Shown here: positions 14,913-55,124 of the stretch, piece by piece | Layout of the letters: each line of letters begins with the position of its first letter | How positions within the stretch are numbered: position 1 is the stretch's first letter | Source of the DNA: Candidatus Woesearchaeota archaeon | GTDB lineage: Archaea; Nanobdellota; Nanobdellia; Pacearchaeales; GW2011-AR1 | NCBI GenBank assembly: GCA_964613185.1 | Contig: CAZTIP010000001.1 | Span: forward strand, 129,814 to 193,813 | DNA: 64,000 bases | Direction: 5' to 3' | Translations under genes and position numbers: made by a program | The notes under the pieces: generated by a model | What the model was told of the DNA's origin: nothing | What the model saw: only the letters and a program-made list of their open reading frames with translations | The model's database searches: none

Positions 14913-15635
14913 ATGATATTAAAATTAGATAATCCCAAATTATTGAGTGATGCTATTGGAGTAATTTCTGAAATAGTTAATGATGTTCGTATAAAATTAT
15001 TGGAAGACGGAATGAGTATTGTGGCGGTTGATCCCGCAAATGTTGCGTTAATAATTTTTAAATTTCCAAGGGAAAGTTTTTCACAATACGAGGCAGGGAA
15101 CGAAGTCTGGGGAGTAAATTTAGACGATTTAAAAAAGATATTAAAACGTGCTTCAAATTCCTCGAGTATAGTTTTTGAGCAAGAAGATAACAAATTAAAA
15201 ATAACCATCTTTGATAAGGTAAAACGAATTTTCACACTCTCCCTAATTGAAGTAGAATCGGAAGATAAAGATATTCCAGATTTAAATTTTGCGTGCAAGG
15301 TAGAAATGGACTCTGTGAGTTTTTCACAAGCAATAGAAGACACAATGATTGTTGCAGATTCTTGCGCACTGATGGCCGGAGAAGGTTTTTTTATGGTTGA
15401 AGGTAGCGGAAGTTTAAATTCGGCAAGGGCAGAGTTTTCAGGAGACGAAGTCAAAATCACAGGAATAGGAAAATCAAAATACTCTTTAGAATATTTAATG
15501 AAATTCATAAAAGCACAAAAAATCTCGGATAGAGTCGTAGTAAATTTTTCAGACGATTACCCTCTAAGATTAGATTTTCCAGGAGAAAAAATAGGGATTG
15601 GTTTTGTTCTCGCACCAAGGGTAGAAAATAATTAG
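14913..15635 (+). CDS. pcn: DNA polymerase sliding clamp PCNA
   Basis: 240 aa. N-terminus ...LLSDAIGVISEIVNDVRIKLLEDGMSIVAVDPANVALI is typical of archaeal PCNA. TATA-like CTTTAAATAA about 22 nt upstream. Confidence 0.9.
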   Translation: MILKLDNPKLLSDAIGVISEIVNDVRIKLLEDGMSIVAVDPANVALIIFKFPRESFSQYEAGNEVWGVNLDDLKKILKRASNSSSIVFEQEDNKLKITIFDKVKRIFTLSLIEVESEDKDIPDLNFACKVEMDSVSFSQAIEDTMIVADSCALMAGEGFFMVEGSGSLNSARAEFSGDEVKITGIGKSKYSLEYLMKFIKAQKISDRVVVNFSDDYPLRLDFPGEKIGIGFVLAPRVENN

Positions 15636-15665
15636 GAAATTTAAAAGATAATTTTTAAGATAGAA

Positions 15666-15673
15666 TTTATAAA
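15666..15673 (+). promoter_or_regulatory. TATA box TTTATAAA, 22 nt upstream of the ATG at 15695
   Basis: The promoter/leader (gaatttataaa...aaaataaatATG) is nearly the same as upstream of the paralog at 19753. Confidence 0.55.
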
Positions 15674-15694
15674 GTATTAGGCACTAAAATAAAT

Positions 15695-16435
15695 ATGAAA
15701 AAAAGAGGGCAGATAACAATTTTTATAATCGTAGGGATTGTGATTACTGTATCAATACTCTCAATAGTTTTTTTAAGAAGCGGAATAAGTTCACAAACTC
15801 CAAAAAATTTAGGACCACGGCAATTTATCCAAGGGTGTGTAGAAGAATTAGTGCAAGATTCTTTAGAAAAGATTCTTGCAGGCGGGGGAAAAATTTCGCC
15901 AGAATTAAAAATTCAATATATGGATGAAAATTACAATTACCTATGTTATCAGGAAGATCCTTATCTTGGATGTTATAATCTTTATTCAATGTTAGAAAAA
16001 AAAATAGAAGAAGAAATAGAAAATGACACAAAAGAACAAGTAGCCGAATGTTTTGGATTATTAGATGAAGATTTTTCAGAAAGAGGTTATTCTGTAAGTC
16101 AAGAGGATGAAGATTATTCAATTGATTTATTACCTGGAAAAATAAAAATAAATTTAAAAAAGAAAATAGATATTTCAAAAACAGGAGAGGCACAATCATT
16201 TGAAAACTTTGATAATCAAATTTTATCACCGCTTTATGAAATTGTAGAACTCACACGAAAAATAGTAAACGATGAATCAGCATATTGTAGCTTTGATTAT
16301 ATTTATCACATGTCTTTATATCCTCAAGAGAGTATAAGGAGAATAAGTTATGCAGGCAGTAAGCTATACTATATATTAGATAGAAATTCCGGAAAAGAAT
16401 TCAAATTCGCAATAAGAGGATGTGCACAAAATTAA
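15695..16435 (+). CDS. Class III signal peptide protein, 246 aa (cassette A partner of the cysteine-rich giant)
   Basis: MKKRG|QITIFIIVGIVITVSILSIVFL. Paralog of 19753..20496 (shared YLCY, FKFA-x-R). Confidence 0.6.
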   Translation: MKKRGQITIFIIVGIVITVSILSIVFLRSGISSQTPKNLGPRQFIQGCVEELVQDSLEKILAGGGKISPELKIQYMDENYNYLCYQEDPYLGCYNLYSMLEKKIEEEIENDTKEQVAECFGLLDEDFSERGYSVSQEDEDYSIDLLPGKIKINLKKKIDISKTGEAQSFENFDNQILSPLYEIVELTRKIVNDESAYCSFDYIYHMSLYPQESIRRISYAGSKLYYILDRNSGKEFKFAIRGCAQN

Positions 16436-19400
16436 AATGGAAAAAAAACTAGGAAAAAAATTTAACTTAATGTTCTTCGCTGTTTTGATATTCTCTTTTG
16501 GATATTTATTTTATGGAATCAGTTTAACCTCTGCAGAATCAACTGGATGCTGTGAGGTAGATTCAAACGGAGTTCAATGTTCTACGACTACAGAAAGCGA
16601 TTGTTCTTCCCAAAATTTTGCAGGAAACACACAATGTGAATCAACTTCATTTTGTCAAAGGGGATGTTGTTACGACGATTCAACAGGGGTTTATGACCAG
16701 AATGTTTTACAATCAAGTTGTAATTTGGATTGGAATAATGATCCAAATTGCAATTTACCAGGTGCAGCTGAAGGATGCTGTATTCTGGGGAGTTCAACAA
16801 TTTACGAAACTGGGGGCAGGTGTGCAATAGATTCTGTTCAAAGAGGTTACGAGGGGATTGACTGGAGATCTGATTTAAATGAGGCACAATGTGTGACATT
16901 TTCACAATCTCAAGATGAAGGTGCTTGTGTTTTAAATGGTGGAAATTGCAAATTCACAACGGGAGGAAATTGTGCAAGTTTGGGAGGGGATTTTTCACCA
17001 GATTATTTGTGCACTGCAGAAGAACTAGAAACTTCTTGTGAAAAAACAACAGAAACAACTTGCGTGGATGGAAAATACGGAGTTTATTTCACGGACACCT
17101 GCGGAAACATTGCAAATATTTATGATTCAAGTAAAACCTCTGATCAAACCTATTGGGAGACTGCAATCACTCAAGAAAATTCTTGCGGGGCAAACGATGA
17201 AGAAGGAAACGCAAACTCTCAAGATTGCGGGAACTGTAATTTACAGGCAGGAGGATTATGTAGTTCAGCAGAAGAAGATAATTTCAGTCCAGATGATGGA
17301 GACTATTATTGTAAAGAAGTTTCTTGCGAATTTGATGGAGATAATTATGAGAATGGAGAATCATGGTGTGTTTATGACGGAATAATTGGAAATAGCAATG
17401 ATGTTCCAGGTTCAAGACATTGGAGATATGTTTGTAATCAAGGAAAAGTTGAAATAGATCCCTGTGCAGATGCAAGAACTCAGATATGCTTACAATCAAA
17501 TACTGAAGAAAATGGGGGAACGATTTTCAGAAATGCGGCATGTTTAACAAATACAGGAGATAAGTGCTTAGAAATAAATTCCGAGACAAATAATCCAGAA
17601 AGATTAGAAGAATTGTGTAATGAAGAGGCAAATTGCAGAGTTAATTATGTAACAGTTACGGATGATTTTCAATTTAAAACCTGCATCCCAAGATTTCCTC
17701 AAGGATTTGACTTTAAAGATGAACAAGCTCAAGAAAATTCTGCAAACGCATGCAAACGTGCAAGTGCTACATGTGAAATTCAGCGAAGGAAGAATAATTT
17801 GGGAAGATGTAGAATAAGAAAAAATAGTGGTTGTTTAGATATAAAATTTGCAGAGGAGATGAATAATCTTTGCAGGGGTATGGGAGATTGTGGAGGGGAT
17901 ATAAATCTTAATAATGATTTTGTTTCAAATTATCAAACAAGACTTGTGCCAGGGTATGGAAGGACACCTCCAAGAATTAGTTCAGGGTATATCAATGATC
18001 TAGAAGATTTTGGGAGTCAAAATAATAATTTGGAAGGGATATTAATAATCTTAGAAAATTACCTAGATTATATGAGTATTTTAGGGGTTATAATTTATGA
18101 TCCAAGTTACAATGCAACAGCAGCAGAAAATACAAATCTTTTATTAATAGATCAATTATACAGTCAAGAAGGATACAATCATACTGTCTCAGTGGTTCCT
18201 CCAGAAATGGGATCTAGCGGACTTTTTAATTGGTTTGGAGGTTGCACCAATATGAAGTTAACCTATTCTTGTAAAGCATGGCAACCTCCGAGGGGTGGAG
18301 ATGCTTGCGATTTATGTAATGACGACCCATTAAAACCATGTTCAAAATACCGTTGTGAAAGTTACGGTGCAACTTGTGAATTAGCAAATATTGGGACTGG
18401 GGAAGAACTATGTTACGATGCAGGGGTTGATGACGCTAATCCTCCAATTCTAGCTCCTCAAATAGGTTACATCTCAGCAACAGAAAATTATTCAAATATC
18501 ACTGAAAACGGATTTAGCATAACTTCAACTGAAGGCGAGTGTTTAGAAGCTTATTCTCCAATCCATTTCGGAATAACTACTGACGAAGTATCTAATTGTA
18601 GATATGATTTTGAAATGCAAACTTTTGAAAATATGAGTTATGATATGGAAAACGGGCTAGCATCATATAACCACACTCCTCACCAAGTTCCATTCTATCT
18701 TCCAGATCCAAGTCACGGAGAAAGTCAGGGATTAAACTGGTCTGGAGAATTAGACCTATATGTGAAATGCCAAGATGGAAACGGAAATGAAAACCCTAAT
18801 TTCTACAAAGTTTCAATGTGTGTAAATCAAGGGCCGGATTTAACTCCTCCAATTATAATTGCAACATCTCCAGAAAATAATTCACGAATTAGTTTTGATT
18901 CCACTGCGGAAGAAGTAGAATTCATAACAACAGAACTTTCAACTTGTAAGTGGGCAGACAACGATACAGATTATTCATTAATGACAAATCAACTAGTTTG
19001 CGACGAAATCTTCAATGAACCTTCATCAACTCAAGGATATTCATGTAAAACAAATCTCACAATAACTGACACAAAAACCACAAAATACATTAGATGTGCA
19101 GACCAACCATGGTACGAAGAAACAAACGACTCATTAAGAAATTCAAACTCGCAAAGTTTCGTTTACACGTTAAATCAACCAAGCCAGAAAATTAAAATAG
19201 ATTCAATTTCGCCATCATCAGATTTCAAAACAGCAACAGATACAACCACCGTAAATTTAGAAGTTCAAACAATCGGCGGAGGAAACACACACACCTGTTC
19301 ATATTCATTCTCTGGATACGAAAGGATGGCTCCATTTTTTGAAACAGGTTTGGGGAATATTCACAACCAACCTTCACTAAATCTCTTCGCAAAAAAACAT

Positions 19401-19721
19401 GAAATTTTCATAGAATGCAAAGACGAAACAGGGGACACAGAACAACAAACCTCGACCTTTGAAATAATAAAAGATGAAAGCGATGCAAAGATAACAAGAA
19501 TCTGGCAAGAGGAGGGAGAAATAATTTTCCTAACTGAAGAATCTGCAGAATGCAAATTTTCTGAAGAAACTTGTAATTTTAATTGGGAAAACGGAACTTT
19601 AACAGGAACAGGGAGAACACATACAATAGATGCAATCAGAGGAAGAACTTACAGAATAAAATGTTTAGACGATTTTGGAAACAAACCAAGAGGGTGTTCA
19701 ACAATAATTCGCGCGTCATAG
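16422..19721 (+). CDS. Giant secreted cysteine-rich protein A (1099 aa), unknown family
   Basis: Signal/anchor LMFFAVLIFSFGYLFYGISLTSA. N-terminal ~500 aa Cys-rich lobe. Core CKAWQPPRGGDACDLCNDDPLKPCSKYRCESYGATCE. Four C-terminal two-Cys repeats. Alternative start at 16437 (MEKKLGKK) just after the upstream stop. Confidence 0.7.
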   Translation: MHKIKMEKKLGKKFNLMFFAVLIFSFGYLFYGISLTSAESTGCCEVDSNGVQCSTTTESDCSSQNFAGNTQCESTSFCQRGCCYDDSTGVYDQNVLQSSCNLDWNNDPNCNLPGAAEGCCILGSSTIYETGGRCAIDSVQRGYEGIDWRSDLNEAQCVTFSQSQDEGACVLNGGNCKFTTGGNCASLGGDFSPDYLCTAEELETSCEKTTETTCVDGKYGVYFTDTCGNIANIYDSSKTSDQTYWETAITQENSCGANDEEGNANSQDCGNCNLQAGGLCSSAEEDNFSPDDGDYYCKEVSCEFDGDNYENGESWCVYDGIIGNSNDVPGSRHWRYVCNQGKVEIDPCADARTQICLQSNTEENGGTIFRNAACLTNTGDKCLEINSETNNPERLEELCNEEANCRVNYVTVTDDFQFKTCIPRFPQGFDFKDEQAQENSANACKRASATCEIQRRKNNLGRCRIRKNSGCLDIKFAEEMNNLCRGMGDCGGDINLNNDFVSNYQTRLVPGYGRTPPRISSGYINDLEDFGSQNNNLEGILIILENYLDYMSILGVIIYDPSYNATAAENTNLLLIDQLYSQEGYNHTVSVVPPEMGSSGLFNWFGGCTNMKLTYSCKAWQPPRGGDACDLCNDDPLKPCSKYRCESYGATCELANIGTGEELCYDAGVDDANPPILAPQIGYISATENYSNITENGFSITSTEGECLEAYSPIHFGITTDEVSNCRYDFEMQTFENMSYDMENGLASYNHTPHQVPFYLPDPSHGESQGLNWSGELDLYVKCQDGNGNENPNFYKVSMCVNQGPDLTPPIIIATSPENNSRISFDSTAEEVEFITTELSTCKWADNDTDYSLMTNQLVCDEIFNEPSSTQGYSCKTNLTITDTKTTKYIRCADQPWYEETNDSLRNSNSQSFVYTLNQPSQKIKIDSISPSSDFKTATDTTTVNLEVQTIGGGNTHTCSYSFSGYERMAPFFETGLGNIHNQPSLNLFAKKHEIFIECKDETGDTEQQTSTFEIIKDESDAKITRIWQEEGEIIFLTEESAECKFSEETCNFNWENGTLTGTGRTHTIDAIRGRTYRIKCLDDFGNKPRGCSTIIRAS

Positions 19722-19723
19722 AA

Positions 19724-19731
19724 TTTATAAA
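19724..19731 (+). promoter_or_regulatory. TATA box TTTATAAA, 22 nt upstream of the ATG at 19753
   Basis: Recurrent octamer and spacing. Confidence 0.55.
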
Positions 19732-19752
19732 CTAAAATAACTTAAAATAAAT

Positions 19753-20496
19753 ATGAAAAAAAAGGGGCAAGTAACAATTTTTATAATCATAGGGATTGTA
19801 ATTGTAATTTCAATTCTTTCATTTTTCTTATGGTTAAAACCAACTTATTTTTCCGGAAAAAGTGCATCTCTAAATTTTGAAGGATGTATTCAAGATTCGG
19901 TGGAGCAAGGAATTCAACAATTAGGAAAAACTGCAGGTTCGATAAACCCGGAATTCACATTAACAACTCTCGGGGAAAAAATAACTTATCTTTGTTATAC
20001 AAACGAATTTTATAAAACTTGTACCGTTCAAAACCCTTTCATTAAACAACATTTTGAAGAAGAATTAACCAACTTAATAAAAGAAAAGGTAAATACTTGC
20101 TATTCAAATTCTATCGGAAATTTAAGGGCAGAAGGATATGAAGTAGCTTCTGGCGAAGTTTCATACGAAGTAAGTTTAGAGTTAGGAGTGGTAAGATTAA
20201 GTATTGACGCACCAACAAATGTAGGGGCATCAAAATTTACAAAATTCAATATAGAATTAAGTTCACCAATTTATGAGATGGTAATGTTAGCAACATCACT
20301 CATTCAAACAGAATCCAAATTTGGAGAGACAGATACAAGTTACCTGATGACATTATATCCCGATTATTTAATTGAAAAACAAGAACAAGGAGAAGGGACA
20401 AGAATTTATACAATAAACAGTAAGACTTTTGGAAACAAGTTCAAATTTGCAACCAGAAGTTTAGTATTCCCTCCAGGATTTATTCCAAACAATTAA
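19753..20496 (+). CDS. Class III signal peptide protein, 247 aa (paralog of 15695..16435)
   Basis: MKKKG|QVTIFIIIGIVIVISILSFFLW. Shared YLCY...C and FKFATR motifs. Confidence 0.6.
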   Translation: MKKKGQVTIFIIIGIVIVISILSFFLWLKPTYFSGKSASLNFEGCIQDSVEQGIQQLGKTAGSINPEFTLTTLGEKITYLCYTNEFYKTCTVQNPFIKQHFEEELTNLIKEKVNTCYSNSIGNLRAEGYEVASGEVSYEVSLELGVVRLSIDAPTNVGASKFTKFNIELSSPIYEMVMLATSLIQTESKFGETDTSYLMTLYPDYLIEKQEQGEGTRIYTINSKTFGNKFKFATRSLVFPPGFIPNN

Positions 20497-20500
20497 AGAT

Positions 20501-20707
20501 TTAATTTCTACAAGCACCCTTACAAACGCTACATCCGCCAGGACATCGGGAAGATGAACCAATTTCAACATTAATATTTCTATCCGAATAATCTACAGAA
20601 CTTTTTAAACTGTCTCCAGAGTAGGCAACATCATTTCCCGAAACCCCATAAGAATCATTTCTTGCACCCACAGCATACGAATTATCTTTCCCAACATTAT
20701 ATTCCAT
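20501..20707 (-). CDS. Small (68 aa) Asp/Ser/Gly-rich protein with C-terminal CPGGCSVCKGAC cysteine cluster
   Basis: ORF immediately downstream of giant B on the same strand. It has its own TTTATAAT box (20727-20734), about 20 nt upstream of the ATG. No signal peptide. Confidence 0.4.
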   Translation of the reverse strand: MEYNVGKDNSYAVGARNDSYGVSGNDVAYSGDSLKSSVDYSDRNINVEIGSSSRCPGGCSVCKGACRN

Positions 20708-20752
20708 AAAAAATATTAATTAATTCATTATAAAAACCCTCTGATTTAAATT

Positions 20753-23700
20753 CTAAAAGAAATTTCCAGTAGGTCTTACAACTAATGAACAGTCAGCTTC
20801 TTCATTTTTGAATTCATCACGACACTTGATGTAATAAGTATCGTCTTTATTCCAGTCAGTAACATGGGTTGTCGTATTCGCATAAGGCATTTGAGTCCCC
20901 TCATCAAATCCGAAATCACAATCATTCAAACTATATGAGCATTGACTATCCCTGACAGTAACTATTTTCAAGAAAGAATTCTCTTCGTAAACTCTTGCGA
21001 TAACCGGAGCATTTTCATCAATATCTAGATTAAAGTTAAGCGTATCTTCAACCAAATTTCCGCCCTCATCAATACATCGTATATTATATTCATGTTGTCC
21101 CGCTGCCAAGGATTGCATCTGAGTGCTTATTCCGTCAGCATTGTTTGTATCAAAGAAAGAAACATAATCTCCCTCAATACCATTATCCGAATAATAACAA
21201 ATAGAACGCCCACCATCACAACCGAATAGAGTTTCTGCACGAAGTTCAACAGGCATTGGACTAACTGCACCGAAAACAGTACTATTGGGTTTCAAGTTTT
21301 TCATTTTCAACCCAGTACTTCCATGAAGGCTAAATTCAAAACTCTGTGACATTTTATTCCTATCAATATCTGCAGCATTTGGTTGATCCTTACATCTTAC
21401 ATAAAATTGAGTATCCGCTCTAGAAATTCCTTCAAAGTCAGCAGCACATGTCCAAAGATTCTGTGCATTAATTTGGTAGGGTTGACTAGCACATTGCATT
21501 TCATTCTGCATAGAATCATAGTCATTATCCTGAGAGCTCCACCTACATTGTGCAGGTTCGTTAACATAAAATTCTACATTAGCAACATCCTGATTTTCAG
21601 CAACACAAGCCCCATTATTAATTGAAGTAGCTTCTATCGTCGGAGAAGTAGTGTCTGGAGAAGGGTCAATACAGAAACTAACTTCATATTCCGCAGTATT
21701 AGAATTTCCAGTTTTATCCATACATCTAATAAAATAATTCATCTCATTTCCATTCTGTAATTCAAATGATGAATTTTCAAGCAAACCAACACTAGGTAAG
21801 ACAAAACTTTCAGAGTGATTATAAAGGTATAAATTATCTCCTCCAACAAAATTCCTCATCAAATCAAATTCAGTAGTATGATTAAAATCAATCCTACATT
21901 GAGATAACTCATTAGTATTAATCCCAAATTCTATAGGGGTAAAAGCTTTCAAACAGCCATCTGAACTAGATGAATCAATAATTTCAAATCCGGGACTTGG
22001 GGGGGAGTTGACTACATTAGTATATTCAAGTCCTGAAGTTAAAGCACTTTCAGAAGGACTAATTACGGGAGGATTCACATCTCGAGGATTAACATTTACA
22101 CAACTTTCTTGTTCAGTTCCTTGATTAACTATCTCGCAAGTTTGTCCAAGAGATTTACATCTATATTCTGAACAAGGTAATCCATCATCTTCATTACATG
22201 CTTCACAATCATCTCCTCCACGAGGTGCTTGCCAAGGTTTACATTCAAAAGAAACAACTTCGACCTTAGTATCCTTATAGAATACAAGGAAATAAACTAC
22301 AAGTCCAATTCCTCCTGAAAAATACCATTTAGCAAAATTTGTCCCTGTAGTAACAGCCCATGCATTAGTAAGCTGGTAAGTAAATGCAGATGCTGCAATA
22401 GATGTAGCAATGGCATTACTCTCTTCGTCATCCATTCCAAACAAACTCCCTAGCAATAGACCGACACCATAAGCAGTCGCAGTCCACCAAAATGCAGTCC
22501 ACCCAATAGAAGGTAAGGCGGCTGCACCAGCACCAGCTGCAGCACCAGATGCAGCACCAGCTGCAGCACCAGCTGCACCACCAAATGCGGCACCAGCTGC
22601 AGCACCAGCTGCAGTACCACTAGCAATATAAGCTGAAGAAACAAAATAATGCGCGATATAAGTTGCAGTTGCAATTCCTGCGGAAGTCATAAGGAATCGT
22701 TCAAAGTTATTGGCCACTGAAGAATAAGCAAAAGGATCAACAGAATAACCAGAATAACCGTTCCCAATTAAATTTTTCTGGTTAGGCGTGAATCTTTTTC
22801 TTTCTCCATTTATTTTCCAAGAATAACCATCATCTGTAAATTCTTCTTGATAATTAACATAACCTCCACAATCTCCTGCGGCAGAACAAGCACGATTAAC
22901 ACTCAATGCCCACTCATCACTTAAACATTCTCCATTTTCCGCGACATCCCAACTATCTAATAACCCCTTTTCATAAAGAACATCACATCTTGCACTAACT
23001 GCTCCACAAACATTTTTCGCACCACCATCTTCCCAAAAATCTAAACCTGGAGAGTTATTAGGGACACAAACACCAGATTCCATTCGCCTACCATTAGACA
23101 TCAAACCTTCAACAGAAGAAACCCATTTACAATCTCTTATATCATTATTTTCACAATCACTTTTTCCAAGTTGTAGTGTACAATCTTGCCAACGATTTAC
23201 CCTACACGCCGCAGTCCCAAAATCATTTCCAGAAGCAGTTTCAATTTTTCCTTCAATACAAATAGAATTTCTATAATCTGCACATGCCTCAACAGTAACA
23301 TCTCCATCAACACAAATTTCCCTGAAATATCTTGAACCTGCAGGGTCTAAACCTTGTCCAGAAAGTGGGTCATTCACACACCAAGATTCTCCATTTAATC
23401 GACTATCTCCATTTCTATCTATACATTCAGTTTTTTGACAATAATAATCACTATCTGCAGGGCTTCCAAGTCCTAAAACTCCATCCCATTCTGCACAACG
23501 AGTTCCTTCAAGATAATCACAATTTCCACAATCAGTATTCGCATCTGAGTTCGGATCACAAACAGCATCTGCTTCGAGAACTCTCCCATTATTCCAACTT
23601 TTAGACTTATCTGAAGAATAAGCATTCTCCAAATTTCCACAGGAATCTGTCCAATAAACATCCTCTCCATTACAAGTGGTGGAAGTTTGACGAGCACAGG

Positions 23701-24400
23701 CAGTTCCTAATTCTTCGGCAGAGCATAACATATCCTTATAGAATGTTTTTCCAGAAGAAGTTTCGTTAATTCCTTCAACATTATCACTTGCACCACAATC
23801 TGAACGAGTTGTAAATTCACAAATTCTCTCAAAATCCTTTTCAAAGACACAAGCACCCTTATCTTGAGATTGAGCAGCAGCAATGCATGCAACTTCAGAA
23901 TTTATATCAGTCCGATAATTATTTTCCATGCCAAAAAAAGAAGATAATTTTTTACATCTAACTAATGGGACAAAAGATGCTTGGTCTCCAATAATGCAAC
24001 ATCCAAGCTGACATTGAGGAACTTCATTTGCAGAACGGGCATCCCAAAGACCTCCATTATCTGAACAAACACTTTGAGGGGTATTCTCCATACAAATACC
24101 TTCTCCAGAATCATAACAAGTTCCAAGTTTACAATAAGAAGTAGTTTCACAAGAAGTTGGAGAGCTTCGAGAACCGGGGGCACATTGAGATTCATCAGTA
24201 TTAACACAAGAAGCACCATCAACAGTTTTTTCACAACAAGTGCTTGGGTCAGAACTCGCAGTTTCAGCAGAAACAGGCGAAGCAGAATCAAGGATAAAAG
24301 CAAAAGCAAAAAGGGAACTAATCATCAAAACCAGCTGAAAACTAGCAACAGCTTTTTTATTCAAATCAAAACCTCTTCTTTTCATAAATATTTCAGCCAT
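20753..24400 (-). CDS. Giant cysteine-rich protein B (1215 aa), paralog of A with inserted hydrophobic Gly/Ala-rich segment
   Basis: Collinear with A. Core [37 protein letters not shown]. Signal [23 protein letters not shown]. The true start is probably the second Met (24385, MKRRGFDL), which lies 22 nt from the TATA box at 24407-24414. Confidence 0.7.
22514..22621 (-). repeat. Imperfect GCAGCACCAGCT-type repeat tract encoding a (G/A)n stretch inside giant B
   Basis: Plus strand reads ...gctgcaccagcaccagctgcagcaccagatgcagcaccagctgcagcaccagctgcacc... It translates (minus strand) to [34 protein letters not shown]. Confidence 0.8.
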
Positions 24401-24406
24401 CTCTTA

Positions 24407-24414
24407 TTTATAAA
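24407..24414 (-). promoter_or_regulatory. TATA box TTTATAAA for giant B (22 nt from the ATG at 24385)
   Basis: Palindromic octamer. Spacing matches the window-wide rule only for the second Met. Confidence 0.5.
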
Positions 24415-24444
24415 TTCTTTCATAATAAAAACCGCTTCTAAACT

Positions 24445-24452
24445 TTTATAAA
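24445..24452 (+). promoter_or_regulatory. TATA box TTTATAAA for the pilin-like operon (24 nt upstream of the ATG at 24476)
   Basis: Second TATA box in the 75-bp divergent intergenic region. Confidence 0.5.
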
Positions 24453-24475
24453 TCTCTTATATTATATAATCAAGA

Positions 24476-24973
24476 ATGAAAAACTTAAAAAAAAGAGGAC
24501 AACAAACAATGGGATTACCTTTCGGGATGATTTTTTCAATTATTTTAATAGTGGTATTTGTAGTCATCGCATTCATAGCCGTCGGAAGTTTTCTAGACAT
24601 TGGAAAAAGTGCAGGAGTGGGATTATTTTACACAGAGCTTCAAGAAGCAATCGATAATTCTTGGAGAGGGCAATCAAGCGAAACAACTTTCAAAATAAAT
24701 TTACCGTCAGAAATAAAAACAATCTGCTTTTCAAATTTATCTAAAACAATAACTGGAGAAACAGAATATTATAACCAAATAAAAAATTATGAAGTTTATG
24801 AAGCAAACACATTTTTAATTCCACCAGAAAACGCCCAACAAATGCAATGGAAATTAATCAATCATTTAGATATAGAAAAAATAACTGAAAATAAAAATCC
24901 TTATTGCGTAAGTACAAGTCAAAAATTAAAACTCAAAAAAGGTTTCTATGATAAATTGGTCCTAATAGAATGA
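24476..24973 (+). CDS. Class III signal peptide protein (pilin-like), operon gene 1
   Basis: MKNLKKRG|QQTMGLPFGMIFSIILIVVFVVIAFIAV. Stop overlaps the next start (ATGA). Confidence 0.6.
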   Translation: MKNLKKRGQQTMGLPFGMIFSIILIVVFVVIAFIAVGSFLDIGKSAGVGLFYTELQEAIDNSWRGQSSETTFKINLPSEIKTICFSNLSKTITGETEYYNQIKNYEVYEANTFLIPPENAQQMQWKLINHLDIEKITENKNPYCVSTSQKLKLKKGFYDKLVLIE

Positions 24974-25923
24974 TGAAAAAAAAAGCACAGTTTAGCTTCG
25001 CATGGATTTTCGCAATAATTGTAGGGGGTGCAATTTTATTTTTAGCAATTTACGGAGCATTAAAAACTGCAGACACTCAAAGATTTCAAGAAGATACAGA
25101 AATCGCAAAATCAATTTCAATTTTAACAGATCCACTTCAGGCAGGATTCGCAGAAAGTTCATTCGGAAAAATATCTTTCAAACAAGAAACAAGAATAAAT
25201 AATATTTGTTTTGACGGAGAATTTGGAAAAAACGATTTATCAGTTTCAGTTCGTTCAAGTGTAGGAAAACCTTGGAACAATCCAGGGGGGGAAACCTCAA
25301 TAAGAAATAAATACATTTTCTCAGACGAAAAAAACACAGGGAAAGAATACTACCTATTCTCAAAATCTTTTGAATTTCCTTACGAAGTTTCAGATTTACT
25401 TTTTATAACTCCAAAAAATTATTGTTTCCTAACTCCTCCTGAAAAAGTAATTGAAGATTTAGAAGGATTAAACATTCCTAATATTCAATTAGTAGATTCT
25501 CAAGAAGATTGCACTTTAACAGAACCGGTAAAAGTTTGTTTTGGAAATGGAAATGATTGTGATATCACTGTTTCAGGAACTTGCTCAAATTGTGATTCAG
25601 ATTATGATGAAGGAAACGTAGCAAAAGACGGGGTGGGGAAAAAATTCGTAGGAAATTTAATGTATGCAGCAATTTTCTCAGAAAAAAATATTTATGAATG
25701 CAATGTTAAAAGATTATATTATCGGTCGGAAAAAATAGCGGAAGGATTAATTGAAAAAGAAGATTTAATGGATGCAAGAGGCTGTGATTCAAATCTAAAA
25801 AACGATTTACTGCAATGGATCAGCTTATTGGAAAATGAAACTTCGGGAGGCCTCCCAAATTTGAATTCTGCTGTAGAAAATCTAAACAGAAAAAATAGTC
25901 AGGAGCTTTGCAATTTATGGTAA
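24970..25923 (+). CDS. Class III signal peptide protein (pilin-like, 317 aa, Cys-rich ectodomain), operon gene 2
   Basis: MMKKKA|QFSFAWIFAIIVGGAILFLAIYG. Contains CTLTEPVKVCFGNGNDCDITVSGTCSNCDSDY. Confidence 0.6.
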   Translation: MMKKKAQFSFAWIFAIIVGGAILFLAIYGALKTADTQRFQEDTEIAKSISILTDPLQAGFAESSFGKISFKQETRINNICFDGEFGKNDLSVSVRSSVGKPWNNPGGETSIRNKYIFSDEKNTGKEYYLFSKSFEFPYEVSDLLFITPKNYCFLTPPEKVIEDLEGLNIPNIQLVDSQEDCTLTEPVKVCFGNGNDCDITVSGTCSNCDSDYDEGNVAKDGVGKKFVGNLMYAAIFSEKNIYECNVKRLYYRSEKIAEGLIEKEDLMDARGCDSNLKNDLLQWISLLENETSGGLPNLNSAVENLNRKNSQELCNLW

Positions 25924-26441
25924 AAACAAAAAATCAAAACAAAAAAGCACAAATGAAAATTCAACAAATGGCTTTTATGATTGTTGCAGTTTTCTTTTTC
26001 TTTATATTAGTGGGATTGTTTTTTATAAAAGTTCAATTCAGTGGAATACAAAAAAGTGCAGAAGAACTAGAAAAAAAACAGGCAGTCTCGGCACTAGGAG
26101 TGATTTCAAATATGCAAGAATTAAATTGTAATTCAAGAGAAAGTTTATGTTTGGACAAAGACAAATTAAAGATAATGTCTGGAGAATTAAAAGAATCTTA
26201 CAAGCTGTTTTGGCCAATAGCTTCAATAAAAGTTTATCTTTTAGATACAACGTCAACAAACATAATCCAGTGTCCTGCGCTAAACTGCAATTATTTTGAA
26301 ATTTTCGATAACGAACAAACAAATTCAGAGGAATATTCAACTTATGTTTCAGTATGTGAAAAAGTAAGAGAATCAGGATATGTATACAATAATTGCGAAA
26401 TAGCAAAATTAGTAGTTGGGAGAAAGATAAATGAAAAATAA
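25908..26441 (+). CDS. Class III signal peptide protein (pilin-like), operon gene 3
   Basis: ...NQNKKA|QMKIQQMAFMIVAVFFFFILVGLFF. Overlaps the upstream gene by 16 nt. The exact start is uncertain. Confidence 0.55.
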   Translation: MQFMVKTKNQNKKAQMKIQQMAFMIVAVFFFFILVGLFFIKVQFSGIQKSAEELEKKQAVSALGVISNMQELNCNSRESLCLDKDKLKIMSGELKESYKLFWPIASIKVYLLDTTSTNIIQCPALNCNYFEIFDNEQTNSEEYSTYVSVCEKVRESGYVYNNCEIAKLVVGRKINEK

Positions 26442-26922
26442 AGCACAACAAGAAATTGTTGGTTTCGTTTTAATTGTAGCTATAGTGATGGTTGCATTGA
26501 TGGTTTTTTTAGTAATCTCACTAAGAACTCAGCCAACTGAAAGCGAAAGTATCGAGGTAGAAAATCTATTAAATTCAATAATGAAAAAAACAACCGGATG
26601 TGCAATTTCATTCGAACCACAATACGATGATTTTGAAGATTTATTCAAAAGTTGTCACAACGAAGATACTTGCGACAATATTCAAGAAGATTCATGCGAA
26701 TATCTCAAAGAAAGTTTAAACGAAACAATTAAAGGATTATTAAAAACAGAGGCAACAACAAATTCATTTAGATTAAACTTCATAAATCGTGAAGAGGACG
26801 GGGAAGAAGAAATTTTTGAGATTTCAAATGGGAATTGCACTGGTCAAATTTCAGCAGCACAAAAAACTCTACTCTCAGGTTCAGATAAATTAGTAATAAG
26901 AATGAGAGTTTGCAATAATTAA
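26431..26922 (+). CDS. Class III signal peptide protein (pilin-like), operon gene 4
   Basis: MKNKA|QQEIVGFVLIVAIVMVALMVFLV. Overlaps the upstream gene by 11 nt. Confidence 0.6.
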   Translation: MKNKAQQEIVGFVLIVAIVMVALMVFLVISLRTQPTESESIEVENLLNSIMKKTTGCAISFEPQYDDFEDLFKSCHNEDTCDNIQEDSCEYLKESLNETIKGLLKTEATTNSFRLNFINREEDGEEEIFEISNGNCTGQISAAQKTLLSGSDKLVIRMRVCNN

Positions 26923-26926
26923 CAAG

Positions 26927-27283
26927 TTAAATATTCACAATAATTTCGATTTTATCTACAATTAAAACAGGTCTCAAAGATTCTCTTCTACCTATTTTTT
27001 CAGAATGAAATTCAATAAAACCAAATCTTTCAAGAACCTTAATATCTTCCCTAACCGATTTAAAATCTCTTCTTAAAATTTTGGCAAGTCCATAAATTGA
27101 TTTGGGATTTTCAGATTTAAGAACATGCAGAATTCGAGATTTTTCATTACTCAGGAGATTTCTCAAGAGTTTAACATCCGAAAAATCATGAGGTTTATTT
27201 CCTCTCATTAGATTCGAAACAAAACCCTCTGGATTCACATTCATTTCAACATATCTAATTTTTGTTCTTTTTTTCTTCACCAT
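26927..27283 (-). CDS. Winged helix-turn-helix transcriptional regulator (ArsR/MarR-like)
   Basis: RILHVLKSENPKSIYGLAKILRRDFKSVREDIKVLERFGFIEF is an HTH plus wing. Sits between the pilin-like operon and the S-layer gene. Confidence 0.6.
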   Translation of the reverse strand: MVKKKRTKIRYVEMNVNPEGFVSNLMRGNKPHDFSDVKLLRNLLSNEKSRILHVLKSENPKSIYGLAKILRRDFKSVREDIKVLERFGFIEFHSEKIGRRESLRPVLIVDKIEIIVNI

Positions 27284-27428
27284 TTTCAGATTATCCTATA
27301 TGGGGAAAAGTTATTTAGATATATAAAGTTTATCTTTTATAGATATAAGGTATTTTAAACCATATATAAAATTTCCCAGATTTCCAGATTCTCAAAAAAT
27401 ACTTAAATTTAGAGGGGGTAACAAAACA

Positions 27429-27436
27429 TTTATAAA
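27429..27436 (+). promoter_or_regulatory. Distal TATA box TTTATAAA upstream of the S-layer gene
   Basis: First of two tandem copies of (c/g)(a/c)tttataaacaaa. Followed by the hairpin CCCCTTaaaacAAGGGG. Confidence 0.4.
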
Positions 27437-27491
27437 CAAACCCCTTAAAACAAGGGGTAAAAAGAGGTTTCAGAAAGGGGCAGTGACAAGC

Positions 27492-27499
27492 TTTATAAA
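27492..27499 (+). promoter_or_regulatory. Proximal TATA box TTTATAAA upstream of the S-layer gene (implies a leader of about 180 nt)
   Basis: Octamer identical to the other promoters, but about 208 nt from the ATG. Confidence 0.45.
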
Positions 27500-27690
27500 C
27501 AAAAAGTTAGTTAGATATTCAAGCGTTATTGTTTATCAATAATGCATTGACTAGTCAGTGTACATAAAGGGACAACTAGCGATAACAACTTATAACTTTC
27601 CCTAGTTATTAAGTCCGGCCAGGCTATTAGAAAATCTGAATTCGCAAATGCGAAGCCTTGAACAAGGCGGCTAAACTAATGGTGCTGAAA

Positions 27691-27696
27691 GGAGGT
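27691..27696 (+). promoter_or_regulatory. Shine-Dalgarno GGAGGT, 10 nt upstream of the S-layer ATG
   Basis: Complementary to the 16S 3' end ...GATCACCTCCT read from 55125-55145. Confidence 0.6.
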
Positions 27697-27706
27697 TTAA
27701 AAAATA

Positions 27707-30277
27707 ATGAAAAAAATATTTAGAAAAGCTATAACAGTATTAGGAACAGGTTTATTAATTGGTTCCACAGCAGGCATCGCAGCCGCTGCGGCATATCCTA
27801 GTCCTTTTACAAGTAACACAGCTGTTGTTTATGGTTATGATGCTGATGCAAGTGATAGTATCGCTGCAGGTAACATTGTATCTAACTTAGATGCAAATGC
27901 TGCTGGAAGTAGTACAACTACAATTACCGGAGAATCAGCAGATTTAGCTAGTGGTTCAGATCTTCTTTATTTGAATGATGAATTCAGCGAAAACATTCAA
28001 ACTTTAACAAAGAGTGACTTACCTACAGTTTTAGCAGATGAAGTTTTTACAGATAACGATGGAACTAATTACGATTTTGAACAAAAATTAGTAATTGGAA
28101 CCAGTACAAATAATGGTTTTGAATTCGGAAATTCTGACAATGATTTGGATGATCCTGCTTTAATGCTTAAATTATCTACAACTGCAACTGCAACTAATGC
28201 TATTTATGATTTAACTGCAACTTTCAATAGTGCAGTAAATTTTACTGCAAGTGATTCAGAAGGGGAAGATATAACTATCTTCGGAAGAACTTATACTGTT
28301 GCAACTGCTACAGATGATAATACCTTAGTATTGCTAGGAGGTTCTGGAAGTTCCAACATAAATGTTGGAGAAACCAAAAATATCGCTGTAGGAAGTGAAT
28401 CTTACACTGTTACTCTTGATGGTCTTAGTTCTGCTTCAACTACCCAAGCTAGTGTAACTGTTAACGGAGAAACTAAAACATTTACTGAAGGTCAGACTAA
28501 AACTCTCGCTGGATTAGATGTTTATGTTAAAACTGTTTTCAGAACTGGAGATGATGGTTCAGGATATGCCGAGGTTCAACTTGGTGCAGATAAATTAACT
28601 CTAGAGTCTGGAAATGCAGTTCAAACTGGTTCAGATACTGATGATATTGATGGAACTTTAGTTACATTCACACCATCATCAGCAACCGGCGTTCAAGCAT
28701 TAACAGAAATTAAAATTACTGTTGCTGCTGAAGACAACGATGCAAATCATTTATTAAATGGTGAATCATTTGTTGATCCAGTTTTCGGAACAGTTGTTGT
28801 AAACTTTGACAGTGTTCAAAATGGACCTACCTTTTCTGGAGAAAAAGATACTGGTAGAACAGATCTTGAAATCCAAAAAGGAGGAAATAGAGAGCTTCAT
28901 TTATCTTTAACAGATAATGCTGGAGACAGTGCTACTCTTCCATTTACATATAATACTGGTTTAAGTGATGATAATAGTAATAATATTTCCGTAGTAGAGG
29001 GAGAATCAATTTCGGATGATGGGATGTTTATCCTAAATTCAGGAAATAATCAACACTTTATGCAGATTACTAAGTTAAATTTGGATGATGGAGCAAATAG
29101 TGATGTTGCTATGAAGGATTTAATTTCCGGAGAAACTTACACATTTGATGATCATAATTTTGCTAGTGGATATAGTGCGACTATTTCAGGTCAAACTTAC
29201 ACCATTACAAATGATAGTGCTACAACAGTAACTGTTGTTTCTAGTGATTTCACCACAAGTGCAGTTACAGATGGAACAGTAGTTAGTGTGTATCCTTATC
29301 TAGAACTTGTTTCTGGAGAAGATACAAGAGTTGCGATGACTGATTATGTATTGGTTTTAGATGATATTCAAACCGGTTCTACTGGAGTGAATGTAACCTT
29401 AGATCTTCCAACAGGAAGTATTGACATAACTCAAAATGCAACAAATGATAGTCTTCAACTTGGAAGTACAGGTGTAGTAATAACTGAAAACAAGACTGTT
29501 AAGGTAGGATCTGCATATTACGACTTTGTAGTATCTGATGGTACTGGATTAGGTAATGTGGATGTCCGTATTGGTATGGATGATGGTCAAAGTAGTGCAG
29601 GAAATGCAGCTGCAGGAACTATTACAACTGCAGGTATTCTTTTTGTAGAAGATGAAGATAAATCTGAATCAACTACAACTACAAAGAATGCCTTCGTAGT
29701 AACTACAACTGACACAGGATCTTATAGTACAGTTTCTGCTCCTGTTTTCACAGGAACTTCAGACACAGAAACTTGGGACAATACAGACTTTACAGGTTGG
29801 TTGACTAACTATGGTACTTATGTATGGAGGGACACTGGAGATTCTAATCAAAACTTTGTAGGTTTATCCTATGGAAACGAGATTATGTCTGCAGATGTAA
29901 CTTTTGCGGAAGGCGAAGTTTCACCCACAGGTTCAGCAGGTATATTATCTGTAATGGATACTGACGTTGCTAGTGTTGCTGGAATGAACTTAGTTGTTGT
30001 TGGTGGTTCTGCCATCAACTCTGTTGCTGCTGAATTACTTGGTGGTGCATACGGTGGAGATATGTTTACTAGTATGACTGGTGTTTCTGCAGGAGGATTC
30101 TTAATTGAATCTTTCGCAAGAAGCGGTAAAACTGCACTTTTAGTTGCAGGATACAACGCTGCAGATACAACAAAAGCTACCACATATTTAACTAACAATA
30201 TGGATAAAGTTGATACAACTGTTGGTAACAAATATACAGGTAACACTGCTACATCAGCTACATTAACTGTTGATTAA
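27707..30277 (+). CDS. S-layer (surface layer) protein candidate, 856 aa, Cys-free
   Basis: Signal MKKIFRKAITVLGTGLLIGSTAGIAAAAA. Thr/Ser/Asp/Gly-rich with no cysteine. N-terminal YPSPF..AVVYG..ASDSIAAGNI and C-terminal NLVVVGGSAINSVAAELLGG...LLVAGYNAADT resemble methanococcal-type S-layer protein termini. Strong SD, long leader and strong terminator. Composition differs from the neighbours. Confidence 0.65.
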   Translation: MKKIFRKAITVLGTGLLIGSTAGIAAAAAYPSPFTSNTAVVYGYDADASDSIAAGNIVSNLDANAAGSSTTTITGESADLASGSDLLYLNDEFSENIQTLTKSDLPTVLADEVFTDNDGTNYDFEQKLVIGTSTNNGFEFGNSDNDLDDPALMLKLSTTATATNAIYDLTATFNSAVNFTASDSEGEDITIFGRTYTVATATDDNTLVLLGGSGSSNINVGETKNIAVGSESYTVTLDGLSSASTTQASVTVNGETKTFTEGQTKTLAGLDVYVKTVFRTGDDGSGYAEVQLGADKLTLESGNAVQTGSDTDDIDGTLVTFTPSSATGVQALTEIKITVAAEDNDANHLLNGESFVDPVFGTVVVNFDSVQNGPTFSGEKDTGRTDLEIQKGGNRELHLSLTDNAGDSATLPFTYNTGLSDDNSNNISVVEGESISDDGMFILNSGNNQHFMQITKLNLDDGANSDVAMKDLISGETYTFDDHNFASGYSATISGQTYTITNDSATTVTVVSSDFTTSAVTDGTVVSVYPYLELVSGEDTRVAMTDYVLVLDDIQTGSTGVNVTLDLPTGSIDITQNATNDSLQLGSTGVVITENKTVKVGSAYYDFVVSDGTGLGNVDVRIGMDDGQSSAGNAAAGTITTAGILFVEDEDKSESTTTTKNAFVVTTTDTGSYSTVSAPVFTGTSDTETWDNTDFTGWLTNYGTYVWRDTGDSNQNFVGLSYGNEIMSADVTFAEGEVSPTGSAGILSVMDTDVASVAGMNLVVVGGSAINSVAAELLGGAYGGDMFTSMTGVSAGGFLIESFARSGKTALLVAGYNAADTTKATTYLTNNMDKVDTTVGNKYTGNTATSATLTVD

Positions 30278-54610: not shown

Positions 54611-54646
54611 TTCATTTACTCCCCTCGTGAGAGGGGAATGTCAAGT

Positions 54647-54676
54647 GGATTCTTATACTGTTCTCATCGAATATGA
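54647..54676 (-). other. 5' arm of the 23S processing stem
   Basis: See the partner at 51674-51706. Confidence 0.7.
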
Positions 54677-54840
54677 AGTCTCGGCTAGAGACTATTCTCA
54701 AACTCCCCAAACCAGCATAGCTGAATTCGGTTCATCGCCAGTTTTTTAACGAGCTACTCTGCTCCTGTTTTTTGAGATGCTTTTCTGCATCTTCATTCCT
54801 CAAAGGAGAGGGTGAATGTGATTTTCTAATTTAAATTTTA

Positions 54841-54911
54841 TGGACCCGCCGCGAATCGAACGCGGGTATCCTCGGTGCAAGCGAGGTATTCTGCCACTAG
54901 ACTACGGGCCC
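54841..54911 (-). tRNA. tRNA-Ala (UGC) in the 16S-23S spacer
   Basis: The reverse complement is GGGCCCG-TA-GTCT...CCTCG-CTTGCAC-CGAGG...CCGCG-TTCGATT-CGCGG-CGGGTCC-A. Confidence 0.9.
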
Positions 54912-54985
54912 ATTTCTGACGCCTGTGTCTCCACTTGCACCAGATTACAAAATGATTATTCACTTCATTAATTAATAATGAAGCT

Positions 54986-54999
54986 AGATGACCAATTCT
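54986..54999 (-). other. 3' arm of the 16S processing stem (pairs with 56793-56806)
   Basis: agatgaccaattct is the exact reverse complement of agaattggtcatct at 56793-56806. The two arms bracket the 16S. Confidence 0.7.
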
Positions 55000-55124
55000 T
55001 GTCGCTTAATATAATTTAATAATTTATATTTTTAGCATTTTAGTTCGCAGTGTTAAAATTTACAAAGCGTATTTTTGTATGTGAATAAATTTTCACCAAG
55101 AAATAAAAGTTAAAAATTAAATTT

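Follow-up and report, generated by a model that had tools for sequence, protein, structure and literature searches.

What is the function of a Gly/Ala-rich hydrophobic segment that lies between the two large lobes of a giant protein from an archaeon of the Pacearchaeales? The question is raised by a stretch of 64,000 nucleotides of contig CAZTIP010000001.1 from a Candidatus Woesearchaeota archaeon (referred to as the window), which encodes two giant paralogs, A (1099 amino acids) and B (1215 amino acids). The segment is found in B. A first-pass annotation of this DNA had offered two roles for it: transmembrane (TM) hairpins which tether B with both lobes outside, or a membrane-inserting element resembling the fusion peptides of viral class I fusion proteins. 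On balance, we consider it probable that the segment is a glycine-zipper-type module which holds the two-lobed giant in the archaeon's own membrane, and that the (GAAA)8 tract within it arose recently by slippage and fills a hypervariable spacer. The two giants and the parts of B on which this answer is built are as follows (KD19, Kyte-Doolittle hydropathy in a 19-residue window; AF2, AlphaFold2; pLDDT, predicted local distance difference test).

20753..24400, minus strand: giant B (stop included); belongs to a large DPANN family of unannotated surface proteins
24266..24400, minus strand: N-terminal signal peptide or signal anchor of B, residues 1-45; KD19 peak of 2.18 at residues 18-36
22766..24265, minus strand: Cys-rich, beta-rich N lobe, residues 46-545; AF2 pLDDT 84.2
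22622..22696, minus strand: hydrophobic segment a, residues 569-593 (FLMTS...AYIA); KD19 1.19
22517..22618, minus strand: G/A tract, residues 595-628; (GAAA)8 from eight 12-nucleotide units, between segments a and b
22436..22516, minus strand: helix b, residues 629-655 (LPSIGW...LFG); glycine zipper G647-x3-G651-x3-G655; AF2 helix 630-653
22421..22435, minus strand: acidic b-c loop MDDEE, residues 656-660; D/E 18.7 versus K/R 9.9 per 100 amino acids family-wide
22370..22420, minus strand: helix c, residues 661-677 (SNAIA...YQL); least hydrophobic of the four segments; AF2 helix 658-681
22277..22327, minus strand: helix d, residues 692-708 (WYFSG...VFY); AF2 helix 689-707, directly joined to the C lobe
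20756..22243, minus strand: C lobe, residues 720-1215; Cys knot CxPWQAPxGGxxCxxC, then tandem Ig/FN3-like domains; AF2 pLDDT about 90
16422..19721, plus strand: giant A, paralog without the hydrophobic module; equivalent mid region at 18030-18257

All five peptides which the first-pass annotation had quoted as a Gly/Ala-rich hydrophobic stretch of about 140 amino acids were recovered from giant B at their positions (residues 566-708). They comprise a run of 88 residues (569-656) free of D, E, K and R in a protein of which 21% of the residues are charged; when B was shuffled 20,000 times, no run of this kind was longer than 64 residues, which places the stretch beyond chance. Its mean Kyte-Doolittle hydropathy is +0.76 as compared with -0.35 for the whole protein. 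The mid region of A had been described as shorter and weakly hydrophobic, and indeed it comprises 76 amino acids with a mean hydropathy of +0.20. In a BLAST alignment of A and B both lobes are 33-34% identical, and the alignment breaks exactly at the module region. With Eisenberg mean hydrophobicities of 0.53-0.77 and hydrophobic moments of 0.04-0.10, segment a, the tract, helix b (0.65 and 0.08, respectively) and helix d fall into the TM class and are neither amphipathic nor surface-seeking. Over all helices, the moment ranged from 0.04 to 0.17.

Homologs of B are numerous. A search of a 90% clustered database returned 483 sequences at E<=1e-3, many of them with E=0 over 99-100% of the query, and when a 50% clustered library was searched with B as the single query sequence, 2877 cluster representatives matched at E<=1e-3 and 1632 at E<=1e-30. 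Homology to the family extends over the full length of the protein, with dozens of invariant Cys columns across both lobes. The layout of signal peptide, Cys-rich N lobe, segments a-d and Ig-like C lobe is shared by about 2,900 representatives from Pacearchaeota/Woesearchaeota-like DPANN archaea. Functional names are absent among the homologs of B, none of which matches a Pfam or NCBIfam profile above threshold or a PDB sequence. Homologs of the proteins studied here carry annotations as Candidatus Pacearchaeota, Nanoarchaeota, Woesearchaeota or plain 'archaeon', and the organism of the window is accordingly a DPANN archaeon. Nothing significant was obtained when A, B, their neighbors and the module alone were subjected to profile searches against Pfam, NCBIfam and PDB sequences, and no description of this two-lobed giant family was found in literature searches. 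In many of the homologs P0007-P0030, but not in B, the N lobe contains an inserted low-complexity stretch (FSNPT..GGFTGNVVAPITG..). Its 'ITG' repeats resemble segment a, which raises the question of whether segment a is really a TM helix.

The hydrophobic module is bounded by the conserved motifs GDCGGYVNY and CxPWQAPxGGxxCxxC. Its elements follow each other in the same order in nearly all homologs: segment a, spacer, helix b, short acidic loop, helix c, variable loop and helix d, after which the C lobe begins. Typical family sequences are GFTGLVxAITGLVxGGFGLITG for a, ALVSGLQWAAIAYxAGQxIGPMxGL for b, ALSTAxAAGFGxYK for c and GIGIGVVVFxxMYK for d. The module was detected in B itself, in 81 of the 101 homologs parsed from the B list and in 67 of the 80 parsed from the A list, and a KD19 of at least 1.6 within the last 45 residues (helix d) was reached by 81 of the 101 parsed homologs. 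In a family alignment of 118 sequences (A1) a Gly-rich hydrophobic segment a stands at the equivalent place in 89% of the homologs, and the columns of b, c and d show a mean occupancy of about 0.76-0.92 with conserved small residues. Residue G655 is invariant in a module alignment of 35 sequences (A3) and present in 109 of the 118 sequences of A1. In 17-residue windows (KD17) a hydropathy of at least 1.6 was attained by 40-58% of segments a, b and d versus 2% and 0% of the lobes; the family median for helix c was 1.11. Helix d, and often also a and b, reaches Kyte-Doolittle values of 2-3.4 over at least 20 residues free of charges in most homologs. Motifs of the GxxxG type are five-fold more frequent in the module than in the lobes (2.86 versus 0.56 per 100 amino acids). 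The segment is thus not peculiar to B and most likely represents the local version of a membrane-embedded helix module common to a large uncharacterised family.

Between strains, the module is the fastest-evolving part of the protein, and it behaves like a region in which constraint acts on composition rather than on sequence. When B was compared with its ortholog from a sister-strain locus (L001; 86% nucleotide identity to the window), the lobes were 89-92% identical while identity in the module dropped to 38-76% (a, 38%; b, 56%; c, 55%; d, 76%), a pattern expected for an anchor.

Helices b and c, which are hydrophobic, rich in Gly and Ala, joined by a short loop and equipped with GxxxG repeats, resemble glycine-zipper TM domains (PF05433, PF13441, PF13488), and one homolog of B is named 'glycine zipper family protein' by NCBI. 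The GxxxGxxxG pattern occurs in B on hydrophobic helix b (G647-G651-G655) and also in the (GAAA)8 tract. With the glycine-zipper Pfam profiles B itself gave no match; PF05433 was found in two of the 35 module sequences (best E=5.6e-4), and homolog P0111 scored 16.3 bits, below the gathering cut-off of 24.2. Instead of belonging to a small lipoprotein or outer-membrane protein, the hairpin of B sits in a four-segment module of a two-lobed surface protein of 1200 amino acids.

An AF2 model of residues 46-1215, computed from a 58-sequence alignment, had a mean pLDDT of 81.5 with both lobes modelled confidently. Between the lobes it placed three helices (residues 630-653, 658-681 and 689-707; 24, 24 and 19 residues long), the last of which is separated by two residues from the first strand of the C lobe (710-720). 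The whole model was compared with PDB and BFVD, and nearly all of the 50 best matches listed per search were arrays of the Ig/FN3 type and phage tail or structural proteins. Matches of the C lobe were to tandem Ig/FN3 arrays of adhesins and surface receptors, with E values down to 4e-14. Searched alone against PDB folds, the N lobe had no significant match (best E=0.1, probability 0.09); as it was modelled with a pLDDT of 84, it may represent a new fold.

Both giants open with a signal sequence. That of B consists of a basic n-region and an h-region followed by SPVSA/ET, the presumed cleavage site as judged from sequence only. Family-wide, Cys accounts for 8.0% of the N lobe and 4.4% of the C lobe but for 0-0.45% of the module, and high Cys contents within the window are almost confined to proteins with hydrophobic N-termini. 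Given the signal peptide and the Cys- and Ig-rich content, both lobes would be located outside the cell. The existence of paralogs with no module (A-like) or with only two helices likewise argues for lobes on the same side, which would imply an even number of membrane spans or none. Two-helix hairpin variants are encoded at L018 5672-9121 (L018 being a relative that is about 40% identical) and by P0231 and P0241.

From these findings we derive the reading given at the outset. Four Gly-rich hydrophobic segments, inserted between two large extracellular lobes, would lie within the cytoplasmic membrane of the archaeon itself, which they would cross an even number of times, and their helices would pack against each other via GxxxG glycine-zipper faces. 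B would thus be held at the cell surface with its Cys-rich N lobe and its Ig-like C lobe outside. The module-less A would probably be held there through B, through the neighboring prepilin-like proteins or through both. Of the roles first considered, TM hairpins that tether B are therefore the one best supported, namely by the conserved segments, the low-confidence helices of the AF2 model, the TM-class hydrophobicity and the paralogs with no module or with two helices only.

A number of observations weigh against anchoring in the archaeon's own membrane. In B, the 19-residue hydropathy peaks of 1.2-1.5 remain below the classical TM cut-off of 1.6, and the summed Hessa insertion energies of the segments are positive (+2.5 to +4.2 kcal/mol); the segment is thus only moderately hydrophobic, and 'strongly hydrophobic', as it had been called, was an overstatement. 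Most likely B carries an unusually weakly hydrophobic local version of the family-wide module. Confidence of the AF2 model was low for the three helices (pLDDT 55-66) and lower yet for residues 550-633, i.e., segment a plus tract (pLDDT <50). The short variant P0216 seems to have one hydrophobic segment only, which contradicts the parity argument. Neither the alignment-defined loops nor, in a separate count, the 12-residue flanks displayed a positive-inside bias, so that topology cannot be fixed from charges; the only clearly charge-biased loop is the acidic one between b and c. Finally, there are three properties of the spacer which do not fit its location in the cytoplasm, where it would lie in a four-span model if segment a is a real span. 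First and most strikingly, sequons (N-x-S/T) are almost completely avoided: one was observed versus 44.8+-5.8 expected in the cores of 57 long spacers. Second, Cys-rich inserts are present in 7 of the 118 spacers. Third, the composition of the spacers, rich in T, S, G, A and P, is extracellular-looking.

The avoidance of sequons was reproduced with independent representatives (2 observed versus 14.8+-3.5 expected), and control motifs in the same long spacers were neutral ([ST]xN, 42 versus 45; DxS/T, 40 versus 41). Since the mid regions of module-less paralogs were neutral as well (14 sequons versus 12.5 expected), avoidance is tied to the presence of the hydrophobic helices. A loop that never meets oligosaccharyltransferase should be sequon-neutral, and a cytoplasmic spacer is therefore disfavoured. 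Three readings of the avoidance can be envisaged: the spacer may be outside and obliged to stay glycan-free, a glycan may trap weakly hydrophobic helices in a wrong topology, or the spacer may have to cross a membrane.

Two specific topological models were considered. The four-span model with a cytoplasmic spacer, with which the basic spacers of P0002 and L004 (see below) agree, was dropped as the single model after the results on sequons and Cys-rich inserts. A cytoplasmic C lobe, with b, c and d as three spans, had been prompted by the ratio of observed to expected sequons, which was neutral in the C lobes (about 1.0) and about 0.4 in the N lobes. It was rejected because module-less paralogs, in which both lobes must share a compartment, show the same neutral ratio and because the C lobe is Cys-rich and Ig-like.

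Hydropathy peak counting across homologs gave between zero and six peaks and no clean parity. Cys-rich mini-domains with up to 12 Cys occur in the spacers of P0047, P0050, P0042, P0082 and P0085, and b and c of P0050 are polar. These variants indicate that the architecture of the module, and possibly its topology, varies within the family.

Mainly because the avoidance of sequons was left without explanation, a membrane-inserting role was kept as a minority alternative. The module would then be a device stored outside the cell which, on contact, inserts into or crosses the membrane of a host, forming a pore, a fusion site or a cytoplasmic bridge, while the two lobes and the prepilin-like proteins would give attachment. 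We regard this as unlikely. In its favor, the near absence of sequons, with its replication and the neutral controls and module-less paralogs, would leave the spacer glycan-free, which is what a membrane-crossing segment would need. The Cys-rich inserts of seven spacers argue for a spacer that is outside, segment a of the homologs is fusion-peptide-like in composition, and the conserved cluster of surface-structure genes belongs to a lineage of presumed symbionts. Glycine zippers, a concept said to go back to Kim et al. in 2005, reportedly occur in channel-forming proteins. Against it, no feature diagnostic of fusogens of class I, II or III was found, and the helices are not amphipathic. Moreover, a spacer with a length of 100-250 charged residues would hardly get through a bilayer without help, and B would be left with no evident anchor other than a signal peptide that is possibly cleaved.

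The fusion-peptide analogy on which the membrane-inserting role was originally based fails in every defining feature that could be tested. Class I fusion peptides such as those of HIV-1 gp41, influenza HA2 and paramyxovirus F are uncharged, Gly/Ala-rich hydrophobic stretches of about 20-25 residues, and in this they are similar to the segments of B; moreover, B is likewise exposed at the surface, large and rich in Cys, and it starts with a signal peptide. Unlike these proteins, B contains four hydrophobic segments rather than one, and it lacks a recognizable activating cleavage site, as no polybasic or furin-like motif is present upstream of segment a (a single Arg only). Heptad repeats or coiled coils were not found: none of the AF2 helices exceeds 24 residues, none of that length lies outside residues 556-707, and the C lobe is mainly beta. 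A C-terminal anchor is likewise missing, with no hydrophobic segment after residue 708 and an Ig-like domain at the end of the protein. No viral or cellular fusogen and no pore-forming toxin was among the 50 best fold matches listed per search. In class I fusion proteins, the fusion peptide is usually better conserved than any other part. The module, being the least conserved part between close strains, behaves in the opposite way, and this speaks against an inserting device in general.

The archaeal fusexin Fsx1 and HAP2, which are class II fusogens (PMC9259645), share with B a secreted, beta- and disulfide-rich ectodomain followed by hydrophobic helices. They differ in that the confidently modelled N lobe of B has no significant PDB match and in that a second large, Ig-like lobe follows the helices of B. 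Kinship of B with fusexins or viral fusogens was dropped as a candidate since the whole model had only generic Ig/FN3 matches and the N lobe none.

A bolder version of the inserting device is slightly less likely still. It holds that the module and its glycan-free spacer are the working end of a DPANN cell-contact machine, made up of the two giants and six prepilin-like proteins, that inserts into the host membrane. If true, the module would leave the surface of the symbiont to open a pore or a cytoplasmic bridge in the membrane of the host, and prokaryotes would possess a device for membrane penetration or fusion that is not related to any of the known classes of fusogens.

It is quite improbable, and more so than either version of an inserting device, that the segment is not associated with a membrane at all. 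A flexible low-complexity linker would then be combined with hydrophobic helices that are buried between the lobes as a core for oligomerisation; such a core might be a helical bundle within a surface complex of several subunits. The marginal hydropathy of B, the low AF2 confidence and disorder over residues 550-633, the hypervariable, low-complexity spacers and the absence of a positive-inside signal are all compatible with such a core, and the helices of a soluble bundle, too, could pack tightly by way of the conserved faces of small residues. However, most homologs have a helix d, and often also segments a and b, of strong hydrophobicity over at least 20 uncharged residues, and the hydrophobic moments are low whereas a soluble bundle needs amphipathic helices. 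In addition, the lobes are intact in module-less paralogs, so the module is not needed for their fold.

The second half of the reading preferred here, a membrane module with a young filler, concerns the G/A tract. Tandem Repeats Finder reported a tandem repeat at positions 22528-22619 with a period of 12, 7.7 copies, 86% matches and a score of 142. In codon phase, the tract consists of eight units of GGTGCTGCAGCT, each of which encodes G-A-A-A. Its GC content is 66% as compared with 38% for the gene of giant B. All ten Gly codons of the tract are GGT, while the remainder of the gene favours GGA; codon usage is uniform throughout (GGT/GCT/GCA), and an exact internal repeat of 24 nucleotides is present. 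Codon uniformity and atypical GC content point to recent amplification, and the tract most likely arose by replication slippage from one 12-nucleotide unit.

The tract falls into the hypervariable, low-complexity spacer between a and b, which measures 13-248 amino acids across homologs and whose alignment columns have occupancies of 0.2-0.6. It is absent from the closest full-length relative of B (P0002; 62% BLASTP identity), in which the spacer is rich in Lys and Ala, and from a relative at 74% identity (L004), which has a strongly basic stretch (KSSPKRNKRTGRG) in its place. By sequence comparison the tract is a lineage-specific filler of this spacer and not a conserved functional element. 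Further copies were not detected when metagenome and genome collections were scanned at the DNA level with the exact flanks. The 90% cluster of B comprises B itself and one fragment, and a scan for related loci returned one close relative only, cut at the tract.

The annotation had also proposed that the tract can expand or contract by slippage. Repeat structure and codon uniformity are in agreement with this; length polymorphism, its other element, was not demonstrated, as the two assemblies that could be compared were identical, the sister strain has a run of N at this place and no alternative length was seen. The tract thus resembles the slippage-prone tracts of surface-protein genes in its in-frame 12-nucleotide tandem units, uniform codons and atypical GC content. 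It differs from them in that no length variation has been observed so far and in that its unit is a multiple of three, so that slippage alters the length of the protein and would not switch expression. Short-read assemblers appear to struggle at the tract, because the sister-strain scaffold L001 has exactly 100 N at its position (L001 5343-5442) and the contig of L004 begins at the same site, just upstream of helix b (L004 1-70). That the tract was created by misassembly of a low-complexity repeat, the true gene being without it or carrying it at another length, can in spite of these two gaps be practically dismissed, since the 216-kb NCBI contig and a contig of the Logan assembly SRR24302422, although possibly built from the same reads, are 100% identical over 3648 nucleotides including the tract, which moreover is in frame, codon-phased, located between conserved helices and, with 102 nucleotides, shorter than typical reads.

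How the paralog without a module fits in is indicated by comparison with the family and by the genes around the giants. By its sequence, A is one of the few family members from which the module was lost, as module-less variants number about 12-13 among some 260 parsed homologs. Such variants usually have a module-bearing copy as neighbor, and copies of the two kinds recur on the same contigs (P0209/P0179, P0218/P0192, P0230/P0173/P0028 and P0232/P0207), which suggests that the two giants work as a pair of which at least one is membrane-embedded. In another genome the module is present in both giant copies. The following neighboring genes are relevant.

15695..16435, plus strand: 246-residue prepilin-like protein (class-III N-terminus MKKRGQ/ITIFIIVGIV), directly upstream of A
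19753..20496, plus strand: 247-residue prepilin-like paralog (MKKKGQ/VTIF...), between A and B; 31% identical to the 246-residue protein
24476..26922, plus strand: four small prepilin-like open reading frames (165, 317, 177 and 163 amino acids), divergent from B
27707-30277, plus strand: 856-residue Cys-free protein rich in Thr, Ser, Gly and Asp, with signal sequence and without Pfam or NCBIfam match

The call as prepilin-like is based on the N-terminal motif; its sole database support is a weak match to Pfam Pilin_N (E=0.056). The GTG start of A overlaps the end of the upstream prepilin-like gene by 14 nucleotides (16422-16435), which suggests translational coupling of the two. An in-frame ATG (MEKKLGKK...) is located five codons after this GTG and was chosen as start in entry P0123.

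The gene order at window positions 14913-30277 is PCNA, a prepilin-like gene of about 250 codons, giant, a second prepilin-like gene of this size, giant and the block of four small prepilin-like genes, followed by a gene of the HVO_A0114 family and a gene for a secreted protein of about 800-850 amino acids. The latter is represented in the window by the 856-residue Thr/Ser-rich protein, which contains 7 sequons versus about 14 expected and may be an S-layer protein. The same order is kept in L001 and L018, partly in a short contig of a close strain (L002) and, as a core, in a further relative (L003). The prepilin-like gene of about 250 codons between two giants was also found in L003 and L018, and the four-gene block recurs in L001, L002 and L018.

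Large adhesin-like genes next to several genes for small prepilin-type proteins are reminiscent of operons for minor pilins and tip adhesins of bacterial type IV pili (for example, PilY1 with FimU/PilVWXE). This is an analogy of gene context only, in which a relationship by sequence or fold is absent. PilY1 does not have an internal TM module as B does, and no gene for a pilus ATPase or platform protein was seen beside the block.

Elsewhere in the window (GC content about 31%), a secreted protein of 606 amino acids (11356-13176, minus strand) has a Cys-rich C-terminal part (4.6% Cys) followed by a TM helix and a basic, Pro-rich tail; it gave weak matches to families of small disulfide-rich inhibitors and defensins. 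An archaeal rRNA operon is located at 51788-56565, with a tRNA gene (54841-54911, minus strand) between the 16S and 23S rRNA genes.

Most Pacearchaeota and Woesearchaeota have not been cultured, and attachment to other cells is their presumed way of life. The family as a whole, which is large, conserved in its locus and endowed with an N lobe without known fold, is of more interest than the G/A tract itself. Its size, its conserved locus with prepilin-like genes, the N lobe and the nearly sequon-free spacers make it a concrete candidate, amenable to testing, for a component of the envelope of these archaea or of the apparatus with which they contact a host.

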